NCBI GenBank assembly: GCA_048939995.1
Contig: JBHLOY010000003.1
Location: 320,001-384,000, forward strand
Origin: Promethearchaeota archaeon
GTDB lineage: Archaea > Asgardarchaeota > Lokiarchaeia > Sigyniarchaeales > SOKP01
DNA: 64,000 nucleotides
Reading direction: 5' to 3'
Shown: positions 48,122 to 51,357 of the stretch, piece by piece
How positions within the stretch are numbered: the stretch's first letter is position 1
How the letters are laid out: each line of letters opens with the position of its first letter
The notes under the pieces: generated by a model
What the model saw: the letters and a program-made list of their open reading frames with translations, nothing else
Databases searched by the model: none
What the model was told of the DNA's origin: nothing
Program-made: the position numbers and the translations under genes

Positions 48122-48310
48122 ACCTTTTTAATGTTCTAAATATTTAAAGATAATCGTTTCAATTACTTATCTTTATAAACTAAATAAAAAAAAAAAAGGA
48201 GGTGATATCTAGACCGTTGATCGAGGTTAATCATCTGAAGATCAAGGTCGATCAAGCAGCAATCTTAAGAGAATATTCAAAGATTATTGCCAACAACTGG
48301 CGATGTTTTT

Positions 48311-49066
48311 TTAATCGGGAATTGGGGATTTTGGGACATGATTTTCATGAGCCAATATATAATCGAATTCACACGCTTTCCAGTGGGTGTCGTAGTGAAT
48401 TTTGACATATTTACATGGTTGTAGTTGAGGTGGATCGGTTAATTTATAACTACTTTCTAGTATAATCCAATTATCACAAGCATAAGGATCAAACGTGAAA
48501 TTATAATATGTCCAGGTGTTACATGGTTCACATACAGTCCAAGAATCTTCAAAGACTAAGAACCATCCAACAGACATTCCAGGAACACAATCATTATAGA
48601 TAGTATTGCCATATTTATCTGTTATGGTCATCAAACCAGGGAATTCACCATATTGCCACCAAGTTTTATTGTATGGCAAGTAGCCGCCTTTTACTCTGAA
48701 AACTACCCATTTGTCTTCACCCCATTCAGGCGTGATGCAAATTGGTAGATCAGATTCAATATTATCTTCAACAAACTCTATGGCACCCGGTTCGACTGTA
48801 TAGTCTTCTGGATCGTCAATTCTGTGATCTATTGGCACATTATCATTTCCCGCTTTAATCCTTCTTATTGGGAATCCTTTCGGATCGTTATTTTCCAATA
48901 TATTTGCAGATGGCATTTCCATATTAGCAGGAATAAAACCATCACGTTTTAAAATATCGAAAAATCCAATTCCGCTTATGAACACCATGAAAATCGTTAT
49001 TATGATAAAGATCAAAATCCCAGCAGTAATAAATGAAGATCTCCTATTGCTGTGATCTAGTTTCAT
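48311..49066 (-). CDS. Membrane-anchored/secreted Cys- and Trp-rich hypothetical protein
   Basis: 251 aa, N-terminal TM (FITAGILIFIIITIFMVFISGIGFF), several Cys in the extracellular part. Confidence 0.75.
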   Translation of the reverse strand: MKLDHSNRRSSFITAGILIFIIITIFMVFISGIGFFDILKRDGFIPANMEMPSANILENNDPKGFPIRRIKAGNDNVPIDHRIDDPEDYTVEPGAIEFVEDNIESDLPICITPEWGEDKWVVFRVKGGYLPYNKTWWQYGEFPGLMTITDKYGNTIYNDCVPGMSVGWFLVFEDSWTVCEPCNTWTYYNFTFDPYACDNWIILESSYKLTDPPQLQPCKYVKIHYDTHWKACEFDYILAHENHVPKSPIPD

Positions 49067-49108
49067 TGGTCTTCAATTTCTATTTTTTCAACATCACCTT
49101 TGAATTTC

Positions 49109-49140
49109 ATATTATTTGACCTTATGGTCAAAAATAATAT
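49109..49140. promoter_or_regulatory. Palindromic operator-like site TTTGACC-ttat-GGTCAAA
   Basis: Perfect 7-bp inverted repeat (49115-49132) with AT-rich extensions; the half-site TTTGACCTTA recurs at 49208-49217. Confidence 0.5.
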
Positions 49141-49507
49141 ATGTTAAAAGATAATATAAATGTTTTGTTCTTTAAGAAGTCCTCCTAGAAAACTTTTTAG
49201 AAATACTTTTGACCTTAATTAACCATCAAATTATGCAGAAAAATGAATTTAATTTAACACAGATTTAAAAAGAACCTTGAATTGAAGTGAAAGATCAACT
49301 GATTTGAGGTAAAAAATTCTTTAAAATAAAAAATTTGTTTTAATAAATAAAATATTTTGTAGAAATTACAATTTTAACGTGCTTACAAATTTTGAAAATT
49401 AAATTTTTATTAATATATGCAAAATTATATTTTGATGGCTTAATATTTAAGGTATATACCAATAATTTAATCATATTTTAAGAGCATTTGTAATAAACCA
49501 ATTAACA

Positions 49508-50884
49508 ATGGAGCATCTTAGTAATACTAAATCTAATAAGAAGAAGTCTTCAAAAAAGAGTCTTAAAAAGCAAAAACAAAAAGAGGGATTAGAAATTGGT
49601 TATATTACCGATATTTTTCCCGAAGAACTTATACAAAGAATAAGATTTCTTCATTTTAAGATTAAAAATTTGGAGGATGATCTTAAAAAACAAGAAGAAA
49701 TAACATCCCATTTCGATTTAGACCTGATAACAGAATATATTAACATTTTAAATATTAATTATAAATCAAAAAATCAAAATTTGATTATAAAAGAATTAGC
49801 TATAACTGCTTCATATTATGATCCAAGTGATAATAAGGAGATCGATATCTATGATATCATGTTTGAATGTGCTCGTGTGTCCTGGATATTAGCAAGATTA
49901 TATAATCAACTCTCCAAAAATTTTGAAAAGGTGGAAGATTGGGAAAACGCTATAATAGCGATGATTAAGTGCAGTAAGATGTACAAGACAGCAACGTACT
50001 TTAGCGCAGCTGCGGTTAATCAAAATAATATAAGTACAAGTCTAGAACCAAAAAATTTAGAATTTGAATCTGAACAAAGTAGAATTTTTGCACAGAGTCT
50101 TGCTGCTCTTAAGGAAGAAAGACAGAATAATTTGATTTTTGCCTCAAAACTTTATTCTGGGCTAAGTTTATTATCAAGGAGATTACTTTATTTAGGCCTC
50201 GATGATGAAATAATAAAAAGCAAATTAAATGCTCAAGCGGACTTTGATATGGGTAAATCATGCTATTTGAAAGCCCAAGCTCTTCAAAAAGGGGTGAGTG
50301 CTGAAACATCCGATAAGCAGAGTAGAACTAGATTGATTGAAGATCTATTAAAGAAATCGGTTTTTTATTTTTCCAAAGCAGAGAAAGCCTGGGAGGAAAT
50401 ATTAAAAAACTATAAAGATTTAACAGATCAAGAGAAAGGAATTATTCTATATAATTTATCAGTGGTTAATGACAATATTATGGAAATTGATGCTGAAATA
50501 TTTCCCTCTGAAATGCTTGAGGATATAAAAAATCCAGAACCTGTTATTATTATACCAGAAAATTTAGCAGAAATATTACCTAAAACAACCTTATATTTAT
50601 CAGATATAAAACCTATGGACGTGAATGTTGATCTGCATAGAAAATATAAAAAGGAGAAATTAGATATACCAAATCCTATAAAAAGAAAAGAAGAGCTATT
50701 AAGTAAAAAGACAGCTTTAGGAAGAACAATCAAACAACTGAAAAGTTTATATGATGATAATGATATCGATATCACTAAATATGCAGAATTATTTGAAAAA
50801 TACACACACAAATTAAATTTAATTGAGTTTGAAATTAGTAAATTAGAAGGAGTAACAAATCAAAAAAGTAAAAATCAACAATGA
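49508..50884 (+). CDS. BRO1-like alpha-helical domain protein with C-terminal Vps28/steadiness-box-like hairpin
   Basis: ITASYYDP...IMFECARVSWILARLYNQLS, RIFAQSLAALK...ASKLY, KSCYLKA, DNIMEIDAEIFP parallel BRO1 consensus blocks in order (pattern recognition only). Confidence 0.55.
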   Translation: MEHLSNTKSNKKKSSKKSLKKQKQKEGLEIGYITDIFPEELIQRIRFLHFKIKNLEDDLKKQEEITSHFDLDLITEYINILNINYKSKNQNLIIKELAITASYYDPSDNKEIDIYDIMFECARVSWILARLYNQLSKNFEKVEDWENAIIAMIKCSKMYKTATYFSAAAVNQNNISTSLEPKNLEFESEQSRIFAQSLAALKEERQNNLIFASKLYSGLSLLSRRLLYLGLDDEIIKSKLNAQADFDMGKSCYLKAQALQKGVSAETSDKQSRTRLIEDLLKKSVFYFSKAEKAWEEILKNYKDLTDQEKGIILYNLSVVNDNIMEIDAEIFPSEMLEDIKNPEPVIIIPENLAEILPKTTLYLSDIKPMDVNVDLHRKYKKEKLDIPNPIKRKEELLSKKTALGRTIKQLKSLYDDNDIDITKYAELFEKYTHKLNLIEFEISKLEGVTNQKSKNQQ

Positions 50885-51357
50885 AAAGAAATTCTGTTTT
50901 ATGGATAATTTTAATAATATCTATAGTGGTAATTTTTTTTATTAGCAATATCTTAGCAATCTGGCTTACTATCATATTTTTAATTATTGCAATATTTTCT
51001 TATATTATTTCTCTTACATTTAAAAGAAAACTTATAAGAACTATGCAAAAATATAAGAGAATAAATGACACAGATGTTGCTAAAGAGTTAAATTCCCCTA
51101 TTGAAAAAGTCCGTGAGAAATTGTCTAGTCTTTACAAGCATCAAAAAAAAAAGATTGGATTGACTGTTTTCTTAAATAACAGATATATCTTTTATAATCA
51201 AGAATCTCTAAATGAATTTAAGCGAGTTTATGCCAATTATGCTAAAGAAAAAGAAATCTTAGAGAAACTACAGCCAACTATTGGCCTTAAAACAAGAGCA
51301 GAAGTGAAGGTTATCAAGGATACACTAATAAATCATAAAATCGTCGAAAAAGTTTAG
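50881..51357 (+). CDS. Two-TM membrane protein with cytoplasmic wHTH-like domain(s)
   Basis: Two hydrophobic helices then INDTDVAKELNSPIEKVREKL; ATGA overlap with the upstream gene. Confidence 0.7.
   Translation: MKRNSVLWIILIISIVVIFFISNILAIWLTIIFLIIAIFSYIISLTFKRKLIRTMQKYKRINDTDVAKELNSPIEKVREKLSSLYKHQKKKIGLTVFLNNRYIFYNQESLNEFKRVYANYAKEKEILEKLQPTIGLKTRAEVKVIKDTLINHKIVEKV

Follow-up and report, generated by a model that had tools for sequence, protein, structure and literature searches.

Bro1/ALIX, which docks on the membrane-cutting ESCRT-III machinery by its BRO1 domain, is one of the two conserved eukaryotic ways of bringing ESCRT-III to membranes. A survey of ESCRT systems in 2024 (PMC10936438) stated that no orthologue of Bro1/ALIX was identifiable in the Asgard archaea. 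The locus analyzed here, for which a preliminary description had proposed an ALIX-like ESCRT adaptor module, lies in a 64,000-nt stretch of Lokiarchaeial DNA (the window) and raises the question of whether these archaea encode a divergent BRO1 protein and, if so, to which partners and which membrane it might be connected.

A tightly coupled gene pair

The ORF list and the translations place two overlapping reading frames on the + strand, P0001 (458 aa) and P0002 (158 aa), with a divergent gene upstream:

49508–50884, + strand: coding sequence of P0001, a BRO1-fold and steadiness-box-like protein of 458 aa (ORF, translation)
50881–51357, + strand: coding sequence of the partner P0002, 158 aa (ORF)
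50881–50884, + strand: ATGA start/stop overlap of P0001 and P0002 (sequence)
48311–49066, − strand: divergent upstream gene m251, 251 aa, membrane-anchored at its N-terminus and bearing a Cys/Trp-rich domain, a possible third member of the neighborhood

The start codon of P0002 is contained within the stop codon of P0001 (...CAA CAATGAAA...), in agreement with the ATGA overlap given in the preliminary description, and all sequence blocks quoted there (ITEYINIL, ITASYYDP, MFECARVSWILARLYNQLS, KMYKTATYF, FAQSLAALK..ASKLY, KSCYLKA, NDNIMEIDAEIFP and the C-terminal LGRTIKQLKSLYDDNDIDITKYAELFEKY) are present in the P0001 translation. Spacing between P0001-type and P0002-type genes is kept tight in the orthologous clade, ranging from −4 to a few nt. 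An independent metagenome contig from another study (run X5) covers positions 48200–51215 with seven differences, all of which fall outside the 458-aa ORF; the gene structure therefore does not stem from faulty assembly.

Two regions can be distinguished in P0002:

50887–51015, + strand: transmembrane helical hairpin, residues ~3–45 (AlphaFold2 helices 3–21 and 23–57; sequence)
51052–51354, + strand: tandem winged-helix region, predicted cytoplasmic, residues ~58–158 (AlphaFold2: strand-helix-helix-strand-strand, then three helices)

Both termini are predicted to be cytoplasmic because basic residues are found on both flanks of the hairpin (positive-inside rule). The winged helices were matched by VIA to SelB WH3-4 (1lva_A, Z 9.1 over 106 aa; 2pjp_A, Z 8.5) and by Foldseek to UFL1/DDRGK1 (8b9x, E 6.7e-3, TM 0.52), in line, as is the AlphaFold2 model, with the earlier reading of the partner as two transmembrane segments plus wHTH-like domains. 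ESCRT-II chains were absent from the best 50 structural matches of P0002, and its comparison with Pfam gave no match at E below 0.01. All 33 homologues of P0002 are of Promethearchaeota type, and a P0002-type gene lies downstream of 28 of the 32 long P0001 paralogues and of none of the 13 short (core-only) ones. P0001 and P0002 are the products of two tightly coupled genes, the latter protein combining a two-helix membrane hairpin with cytoplasmic tandem winged helices.

The pair is situated between a gene for a giant surface protein and a mevalonate cluster, with no ESCRT genes in the neighborhood, as expected from the previous placement of the module outside the main ESCRT locus. Homologues of m251, whose Cys/Trp-rich domain is probably extracellular, were found immediately upstream of a BRO1-like gene in 10 other loci belonging to several paralogue clades; for m251 itself there was no Pfam family, no usable Atlas match and no recognizable fold. 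Two of the three paralogue loci in this genome adjoin genes for giant surface proteins of the NosD/beta-helix type. We considered such a protein as a conserved neighbor and rejected the idea, the linkage being confined to these two loci.

BRO1-fold domain and C-terminal hairpin of P0001

The model of P0001 resolves into the following elements downstream of a short N-terminal tail:

49607–50587, + strand: BRO1-fold domain, residues ~34–360, consisting of helices a1-3, a beta hairpin, three TPR-like hairpins, a further helix and an extended loop (AlphaFold2, VIA, Foldseek)
49811–49846, + strand: two-stranded beta hairpin, residues 102–113 (...SYYDPSDNKEIDIY...), linking the a1-3 bundle to the TPR-like core (DSSP E102-105, E110-113)
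49856–50410, + strand: six-helix TPR-like solenoid core, residues 117–301 (helices 117–141, 145–168, 181–205, 209–229, 234–260 and 270–301)
50540–50584, + strand: P..I.PEN.....PK, an invariant motif of the extended segment that follows the solenoid, residues 345–359 (alignment A3)
50675–50845, + strand: C-terminal antiparallel helical hairpin, steadiness-box-like, residues 390–446 (helices 390–416 and 422–446, pLDDT ~91)

When the AlphaFold2 model (pLDDT 82, pTM 0.72) was compared by VIA with 48,161 chains, the five BRO1 representatives (3rau_A, Z 22.1 over 285 aa at 4.4 Å; 2xs1_A, 22.1; 2oew_A, 22.0; 1zb1_B, 21.8; 3um3_A, 20.9) ranked about 10 Z units above all other folds, the next of which scored 11.8. 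The alignments paired model residues 27–360 with BRO1 residues ~20–348, 275–296 residues being aligned at an identity of 10–15% to the BRO1 structures. The best 21 Foldseek matches were likewise all BRO1 (E 8e-7 to 7e-4), with the following ones at E 0.047 or worse, rather than the generic TPR proteins that the preliminary description had named as the outcome contrary to its proposal. According to the published architecture of BROX and ALIX, the domain begins with the three-helix bundle a1-3, followed by a two-stranded beta hairpin, three TPR-like hairpins in a right-handed solenoid and, across the concave face, an extended loop (PMC3230590); the order of secondary structure elements in the P0001 model is the same.

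At the sequence level, comparison of P0001 with Pfam (E<=10), NCBIfam and the PDB yielded nothing usable, and PDB profile searches with alignments A2 and A3 returned HhH proteins or a designed TPR protein only, with no BRO1 chain among them. The connection is provided by distant members of the family. One of these, P0152, which itself had no match in the PDB, matches P0001 at E 9e-18 and the Pfam BRO1 family PF03097 at E 3.2e-8 (33.3 bits, below the gathering threshold of 35.1; HMM positions 33–208), and a homologue from a second Asgard family matches PF03097 at E 0.0018 (HMM positions 189–287). A language-model search for look-alikes returned an archaeal cluster at 0.97, automatically named ‘putative BRO1 domain-containing protein’, and eukaryotic PF03097 clusters at 0.85. 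Judged from the model and these searches, the core of P0001 is homologous to eukaryotic BRO1 in fold and, through distant members, probably also in sequence; the relationship is very divergent but real, and the BRO1 assignment of the preliminary description stands.

Conservation within the family is concentrated in the same elements. Alignments A2 and A3 place the most conserved blocks in the solenoid core (D.MFECAR, SK..KTA.YFS, LE..SE..R..AQS.AA..EE and SKLY.GLS.LS.R..YL.), the beta-hairpin columns D105, P106, I112 and I114 are invariant or nearly so in the family alignments, and P345, P350, E351, N352, P358 and K359 of the motif after the solenoid are invariant in A3, the distant subfamily included. 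Altogether, 19 columns are invariant over the 33 aligned family sequences. Surface 1 of BRO1 domains is an exposed hydrophobic patch on the concave face that accommodates the C-terminal helix of CHMP4/Snf7 (ALIX I212; BROX L212 and K141/K144). By eye, AQAQE/IIAKL of BRO1 may be aligned with AQSLAA/ASKL of P0001; this stays a lead, because the family HMMs place the ALIX peptide 190–227 (confirmed in the PDB) at inconsistent positions, with 1.2 bits.

For the C-terminal hairpin, the earlier assignment to the Vps28-N/steadiness-box type is supported by structure and profile comparisons, the closest solved hairpin being that of Vps23 rather than Vps28-N. VIA matched it to the Vps23 steadiness box at Z 9.7 (2f66_A, rmsd 2.2 Å, 65 aa) and Z 9.4 (2caz_D, rmsd 1.6 Å), with rmsd values between 1.6 and 2.6 Å overall, and unrelated hairpins tie with the Vps23 steadiness box structurally (Z 8.5–9.3). 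The profile comparison is more specific: hhalign aligned the hairpin with the steadiness box of the Asgard protein Znr_CC_PH_SB over 62 gapless columns (Prob 84.3%, P 7.2e-6, score 33.8), about 9 SD above column-shuffled controls (60 shuffles: mean 10.3, SD 2.6, maximum 16.1), while the reversed controls scored 13.5 and 15.6; circular-shift runs recover the same alignment and were not counted as controls. The A3 profile moreover matches the PF09454-positive hairpin of a UEV-Vps23 protein (E 6.7e-4 per genome), the gene of which adjoins VPS28 and EAP30 genes in an ESCRT-I/II operon. A PF09454 scan of this genome (E<=1) did not reach the hairpins of the BRO1-like proteins. P0001 carries at its C-terminus a hairpin of the steadiness-box type, a relative of the Asgard Vps23 and Znr_CC_PH_SB hairpins.

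Family history and possible functions

The protein search with P0001 retrieved 484 homologues. In profile searches of the phylum the family was found in 127–133 of the 134 genomes of the host's Lokiarchaeial family, usually with about 3–4 copies per genome (three paralogues in the present one), and a second Asgard family has a form that lacks the hairpin. The family was not found in the majority of the Asgard families sampled, nor in 14 genomes belonging to the same order. The distribution was taken from an HhH-free profile; weak phylum-wide matches of a profile containing the HhH domain were set aside uninspected as probable HhH matches. The family is Asgard-specific, and we found no paper describing it. 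The short proteins of Hod-, Njord- and Thorarchaeia that Eme et al. 2023 list as Asgard Bro1, tabulated under PF18097, were considered as members and rejected on account of their length, lineages and Pfam entry.

More than half of the aligned members (18 of 33) carry an N-terminal (HhH)2 domain (PF14520) of the NusA-CTD/RadA-N/RNAP alpha-CTD type. P0001 lacks this domain, and no remnant was found in the 440-nt upstream spacer or in the window as a whole. Its N-terminus is a tail that aligns to the linker following the HhH domain of its relatives (alignment A1):

49508–49606, + strand: Lys-rich N-terminal tail, predicted to be disordered, residues 1–33 (pLDDT 33–42 over residues 1–30; alignment A1)

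As P0001 falls inside the HhH-bearing clade of the tree, the absence represents a secondary loss: the protein descends from HhH-bearing ancestors and has lost the domain, also relative to its closest relatives. P0002-type partners co-occur only with this clade, and the basal, most widespread paralogue has neither HhH domain nor partner and keeps BRO1 and hairpin. The presence of an HhH domain in most relatives suggests a nucleic-acid or other non-ESCRT link.

On balance, we lean towards the view that the pair is a membrane-attached ESCRT adaptor which joins the ESCRT-I and the ALIX/Bro1 routes in one polypeptide and would presumably bind ESCRT-III. In this genome there are genes for two ESCRT-III proteins that have amphipathic helices at their C-termini, and also for Vps28 and steadiness-box proteins. 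P0002 would hold P0001 at the cytoplasmic face of the membrane, the two forming a membrane-attached adaptor pair; the steadiness-box hairpin would pack with the hairpins of Vps23-like proteins, Vps28 and Znr_CC_PH_SB, as in the ESCRT-I headpiece; and the concave BRO1 face might bind a C-terminal helix from one of these ESCRT-III proteins, thereby nucleating or stabilizing ESCRT-III at the membrane site. A single chain would in this way unite two routes to ESCRT-III, that of ESCRT-I and that of ALIX/Bro1.

A rather unlikely alternative is that P0001 is a BRO1-fold scaffold outside ESCRT that tethers a ligand (DNA, another nucleic acid or a protein) to the membrane, for instance in chromosome or plasmid positioning or in DNA uptake. 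Here, the HhH head and basic linker of the relatives, or the basic tail alone in P0001, would contact the ligand, P0002 would serve as the anchor, and the hairpin would mediate self-association only. The frequency of the (HhH)2 domain and the restriction of the membrane partner to the HhH-bearing clade are in line with such a role, as are the nucleic-acid-binding type of the P0002 fold, with SelB WH3-4 as the example, and a neighborhood devoid of ESCRT genes; helical hairpins, moreover, commonly dimerize, in keeping with the structural ties noted above. Against this scenario stand the specific similarity of the hairpin profile to ESCRT-I-type steadiness boxes, the retention of BRO1 and hairpin in the basal paralogue that has neither HhH domain nor partner, and the loss of the HhH domain from P0001 with all else kept. 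In addition, every characterized BRO1 domain named in PMC3230590 binds CHMP4-type ESCRT-III.

It is improbable that m251, the BRO1-hairpin protein and P0002 together act as a cargo or surface-structure adaptor that would sort a surface protein or protrusion or mark its site in the membrane, with ESCRT involved indirectly or not at all. The recurrence of m251 homologues directly upstream of BRO1-like genes across paralogue clades and the giant surface-protein genes beside two of the three paralogue loci in this genome are what points in this direction. Against it, the giant-protein linkage is limited to these two loci, m251 has no recognizable fold or family, and a shared neighborhood alone does not demonstrate interaction. 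Finally, convergence of a generic TPR-like solenoid and a coiled-coil hairpin with no shared ancestry, AlphaFold2 having been drawn to a known fold, would account for the low identity and the missing direct sequence match of P0001 and for structural scores inflated by helical repeats, but is very hard to reconcile with the Z gap of ~10 to other helical repeats, the coverage of the whole 330-residue domain including the non-repeat a1-3 bundle, beta hairpin and extended loop, the co-linear Pfam BRO1 matches of two independent members, the BRO1 clusters returned by the sequence-only language-model search, and the far lower scores of the shuffled and reversed hairpin controls.

The occurrence of a genuine BRO1 fold across a large family of Lokiarchaeia would place the origin of the domain before eukaryogenesis, and the family constitutes a concrete candidate for ESCRT-III targeting in Asgard archaea. 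It stands out in being fused to a steadiness box, paired with a membrane anchor and expanded to 3–4 paralogues per genome. The combined BRO1 and steadiness-box architecture has no eukaryotic counterpart and suggests a former physical unity of the ESCRT-I and ALIX routes. Tentatively, and with more doubt than certainty, the Bro1/ALIX route itself may predate eukaryotes, the archaeal BRO1 protein being wired through its own steadiness box into an ESCRT-I-type headpiece, attached to the membrane by a tandem winged-helix anchor and coupled to DNA through HhH in most paralogues, with eukaryotes later splitting this adaptor into ESCRT-I and ALIX branches.

Comparison with known systems

With the eukaryotic BRO1 proteins ALIX/PDCD6IP (2OEW, 3C3O, 2XS1), Bro1p (1ZB1), HD-PTP/PTPN23 (3RAU, 5MK2) and BROX (3UM3), P0001 has in common the whole fold over ~330 residues and the presence of a single BRO1 domain on the N-terminal side. 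Unlike them, it has no V domain, Pro-rich region, phosphatase domain or CAAX box, so that of the label ‘ALIX-like’ used previously the BRO1 domain remains and the V domain and Pro-rich region do not. Further differences are the steadiness-box hairpin that P0001 has in the same chain, its co-translation with a membrane winged-helix protein and the N-terminal HhH domain added in its relatives. ALIX, for its part, connects to ESCRT-I by binding TSG101.

The C-terminal antiparallel hairpin of ~60 residues is shared with the ESCRT-I steadiness boxes of Vps23/TSG101, Vps28-N and Vps37 (2F66, 2P22, 2CAZ, 6VME; PF09454). Unlike in ESCRT-I and Znr_CC_PH_SB proteins, the steadiness box of P0001 is joined to a BRO1 domain on its N-terminal side. 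Many Asgard-only proteins pair a steadiness box with other domains (Makarova et al. 2024, PMC10936438); a description of its combination with BRO1 was not found in the literature.

In the archaeal Sulfolobales, ESCRT-III is recruited to the membrane by CdvA, a role which for P0001 is proposed, and the CdvA hairpin (PDB 9S9G) is among the structural matches of the P0001 hairpin (Z 9.1). CdvA has a PRC-barrel and no BRO1 domain, and recruits CdvB through the winged helix of CdvB. The P0001 system is different in that its winged helices reside on a separate membrane protein, P0002. CdvA has also been linked to the steadiness box by HHpred, and the ESCRT-II subunits Vps22/25/36 are built from consecutive winged helices (PMC10936438). 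The cytoplasmic part of P0002 likewise has two consecutive winged-helix units, with SelB WH3-4 (1LVA, 2PJP) and UFL1/DDRGK1 (8B9X) as its best matches; P0002 is set apart from all of these by its two-helix membrane hairpin.

The P0001/P0002 locus

The sequence blocks quoted in the preliminary description for a BRO1-like protein are all found in the translation of P0001, and the described overlap with the partner gene P0002 is seen in the sequence as ATGA, with the P0002 start at 50881 sitting within the P0001 stop codon.

Features of the locus
23888-48121, +, 8077-aa surface protein, its end lying beyond m251 on the upstream side
48311-49066, -, m251, gene of a 251-aa membrane-anchored protein, divergent, beyond the spacer
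49067-49507, AT-rich spacer of 440 nt upstream of P0001
49508-50884, +, P0001 coding sequence, 458 aa (ORF and translation)
50881-51357, +, P0002 coding sequence, 158 aa (ORF)

GC content of the window is low (~30%), and close protein matches are all named Promethearchaeota or Lokiarchaeota. Positions 48200-51215 are also covered by a contig of another, independent metagenome study (run X5), with seven differences to the window, six in the spacer (49105-49373), one in P0002 and none in the 1377-nt P0001 gene, and we therefore regard the gene structure as real. On the 3' side, the pair is followed by a geranylgeranyl reductase gene and a mevalonate-pathway cluster; with these genes and the surface protein as neighbours, and no ESCRT genes near the locus in the window, its placement outside the main ESCRT locus holds.

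In 10 other loci, spread over several paralogue clades, the gene immediately upstream of the BRO1-like one encodes an m251 homologue, which makes m251 a possible third member of the BRO1-like/P0002 module. The protein, which matched no Pfam family, is anchored in the membrane at its N-terminus and has a probably extracellular domain rich in Cys and Trp. The 8077-aa surface protein carries a NosD/right-handed beta-helix head (PF05048, E 6e-13), and a second, divergent NosD-type gene (L003:3-1067, -; E 3e-18) adjoins the P0001 paralogue on contig C11 of the host genome; such a surface gene beside a BRO1-like gene was not seen in the loci of other genomes.

BRO1 fold of P0001

P0001 matched nothing among Pfam, NCBIfam or PDB sequences, even at E<=10. 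Its family is narrow but well-populated: there were 484 matches among 5.8 billion clusters, while a set of 1.8 billion proteins yielded no more than 52 representatives at 50% identity. An AlphaFold2 model was built from 33 diverse family members (pLDDT 82, pTM 0.72).

Elements of the P0001 AlphaFold2 model (residues)
39-96, three helices
102-113, two-stranded hairpin
117-301, six helices forming three TPR-like pairs
307-327, one further helix
328-389, long extended segment
390-446, two-helix hairpin

This order of elements reproduces the published BRO1 architecture, in which the a1-3 bundle is followed by the b1-b2 hairpin, helices a4-9 as three TPR-like hairpins, and a loop that lies extended on the concave face (PMC3230590). 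In a Foldseek search of the PDB, the first 21 matches were all BRO1 domains (Bro1p, HD-PTP, ALIX, BROX; E 8e-7 to 7e-4), with designed repeats next, after a jump to E values of 0.047 and above. A second structural aligner, independent of Foldseek, compared the model with 48,161 representative chains and gave Z 20.9-22.1 for five BRO1 representatives versus 11.8 for the next fold (NatC), the BRO1 superpositions covering 275-296 residues at an rmsd of 3.9-4.4 Å (model 27-360 versus chain ~20-348). At the sequence level, the distant homologue P0152 (25% identical to P0001, E 9e-18) matches Pfam BRO1 (PF03097) at E 3.2e-8, with 33.3 bits versus a cut-off of 35.1 (HMM positions 33-208), and the precomputed annotation of its collection gives the same family. 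A language-model look-alike search returned an archaeal cluster auto-named 'putative BRO1 domain-containing protein' (0.97), with eukaryotic PF03097 clusters next (0.85). The BRO1 fold of P0001 and its common ancestry with BRO1 are well supported and, in our estimate, very probable; the earlier BRO1 assignment is borne out by both structural searches.

Together with P0147 and P0149, P0152 forms a subfamily that is rare and richer in GC; its proteins, of 399-405 aa and with 23-25% identity to P0001, retain the PEN..PK loop and the hairpin besides BRO1. Within the P0001 family, reach to the Pfam BRO1 model is limited to this subfamily, apart from a weak match (E 0.0018, HMM positions 189-287) of a homologue of 510 aa in a second Asgard family (genome G307).

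C-terminal hairpin and family history

For P0001 residues 386-451, the best structural matches in the 48,161-chain search were Vps23 steadiness-box hairpins, namely 2f66_A (Z 9.7, rmsd 2.2 Å, 65 aa), 2p22_A (Z 9.7), 2caz_D (Z 9.4, rmsd 1.6 Å) and 6vme_C (Z 8.9). Unrelated hairpins score at most 1 Z unit lower, so that structure alone does not discriminate here, and a scan of the whole host genome with PF09454 (Vps23_core) did not reach the P0001 hairpin, its best match being a 708-aa Znr_CC_PH_SB protein whose gene adjoins an ESCRT-III gene. We therefore compared two profiles, one of 30 orthologues of the Znr_CC_PH_SB C-terminus and one of 165 distinct hairpins from BRO1-like proteins. With hhalign they aligned without gaps over 62 columns (Prob 84.3%, P 7.2e-6, score 33.8); controls scored 13.5 and 15.6 with either alignment reversed, and 10.3 on average over 60 column shuffles (SD 2.6, maximum 16.1). 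When genomes of another Asgard family were searched with A3, the HhH-free profile of the BRO1-like family, its hairpin part alone matched two kinds of protein. One is a UEV-Vps23 protein of 245 aa with a bona fide steadiness box (Pfam UQ_con/UEV plus Vps23_core), encoded beside VPS28 and EAP30 in an operon of ESCRT-I/II genes; the other is a CDC48_N-hairpin-Zn-ribbon protein. Structural matches, profile comparison and A3 matches taken together, the P0001 hairpin is probably steadiness-box-like in fold and profile, as the preliminary description had proposed (Vps28-N/steadiness box), with Vps23 as the closest solved structure. At L089:949-1782 (+) in genome G304, CDC48_N and CDC48_2 are joined to a steadiness-box/SHOCT-like hairpin (A3 hairpin part, E 3e-4) and a zinc ribbon.

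The host genome encodes three paralogues including P0001, the others being a core-only form of 417 aa (contig C37) and an HhH-bearing form of 508 aa (C11) that, like P0001, has a P0002 homologue after it. Of 45 loci compared, 32 have a long (HhH-clade) gene, and in 28 of these a gene of the P0002 family comes next downstream; one of the four loci without it is truncated. None of the 13 core-only genes has such a neighbour. When the tree is rooted with the distant subfamily, core-only forms are basal and the forms with HhH and partner make up one derived clade (support 99). P0001 groups with ten other proteins (11 members, support 100), all of them 539-607 aa long and with an HhH domain. Since P0001 is nested among HhH-bearing proteins yet has neither the domain nor a remnant of it in the spacer or window, it is a secondarily HhH-less derivative that has retained basic linker, BRO1, hairpin and partner. 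Tandem HhH-BRO1-hairpin gene pairs, on one strand and 0.5-1.7 kb apart, occur in several genomes of the host's family (G237:C26 5094-10500; G247:C15 5271-9897; G239:C29 1856-6705; G266:C60 11731-16719; G212:C32 9766-13581).

With A3, a P0001-family protein was found in 127 of 134 genomes from the GTDB family of the host (E about 1e-200); the genomes of P0147, P0149 and P0152 do not belong to the 400 sampled. All five genomes of one other Asgard family gave matches: four have a form that matches A3 in its BRO1 core alone (E 1e-17 to 1e-22), whereas in G305 the match was confined to the hairpin part and fell in other proteins. Elsewhere matches were marginal, the best in the sister family of the same order (1/14). 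The 510-aa protein of G307 (L085:1336-2868, +) matches only the BRO1 core (profile positions 6-310), followed by an acidic linker and an unrelated ~90-aa domain replacing the steadiness-box hairpin.

Membrane partner and putative function

The partner had been described as having two TM segments and wHTH-like domains, and its predicted model (pLDDT 86) agrees: a two-helix membrane hairpin (residues 3-57) precedes a winged helix (strand-helix-helix-strand-strand) and a three-helix unit. Basic residues border the membrane helices at both their N- and C-terminal ends, which would place the winged helices in the cytoplasm. Among structural matches, tandem winged helices rank first, with Z 9.1, 8.5 and 8.4 over ~106 residues for SelB WH3-4, and UFL1/DDRGK1 was found by Foldseek (E 6.7e-3, TM 0.52); no ESCRT-II chains are among the structural matches listed. 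The kinship with ESCRT-II hinted at in the preliminary description is neither backed nor contradicted by these matches. At L016:3580-4950 (+), a P0002-type match lies inside an open frame that spans 457 aa or more and runs off the locus, which may be a fusion of the partner with the next gene.

Domain composition, tight gene coupling and strong conservation are established for the pair, and an ESCRT-adaptor function is plausible. P0002 would hold P0001 at the membrane, the hairpin may pack with other steadiness-box proteins, and the concave BRO1 face could bind an ESCRT-III C-terminal helix. The host genome has two candidate ESCRT-III ligands, ending in ...KIKELEEELNKLKSRD and ...KLEDEIEKLRKELEGG; the verified ALIX 190-227 peptide could not be placed on the P0001 family by the family HMM. 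The chief alternative would be a tether between membrane and DNA that works outside the ESCRT pathway and has the BRO1 fold as its scaffold. The HhH domains of P0001 relatives and the SelB-like winged helices of P0002 speak for this reading; the steadiness-box resemblance of the hairpin and a basal paralogue that lacks HhH speak against it.

The initial observation is confirmed, and the domains were assigned correctly. Makarova et al. 2024 (PMC10936438) state that they were unable to identify Bro1/ALIX orthologues in Asgard archaea. What Eme et al. 2023 list as 'Bro1' are short proteins of other lineages tabulated under PF18097; a 2025 preprint on MK-D1 ESCRT proteins, searched for both names, has ALIX solely as a human protein and does not mention Bro1, and in the library searched no other paper with both 'Bro1' and 'Lokiarchae' deals with the P0001 family. 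P0001 represents a putative BRO1-domain adaptor in an architecture unknown among eukaryotes.
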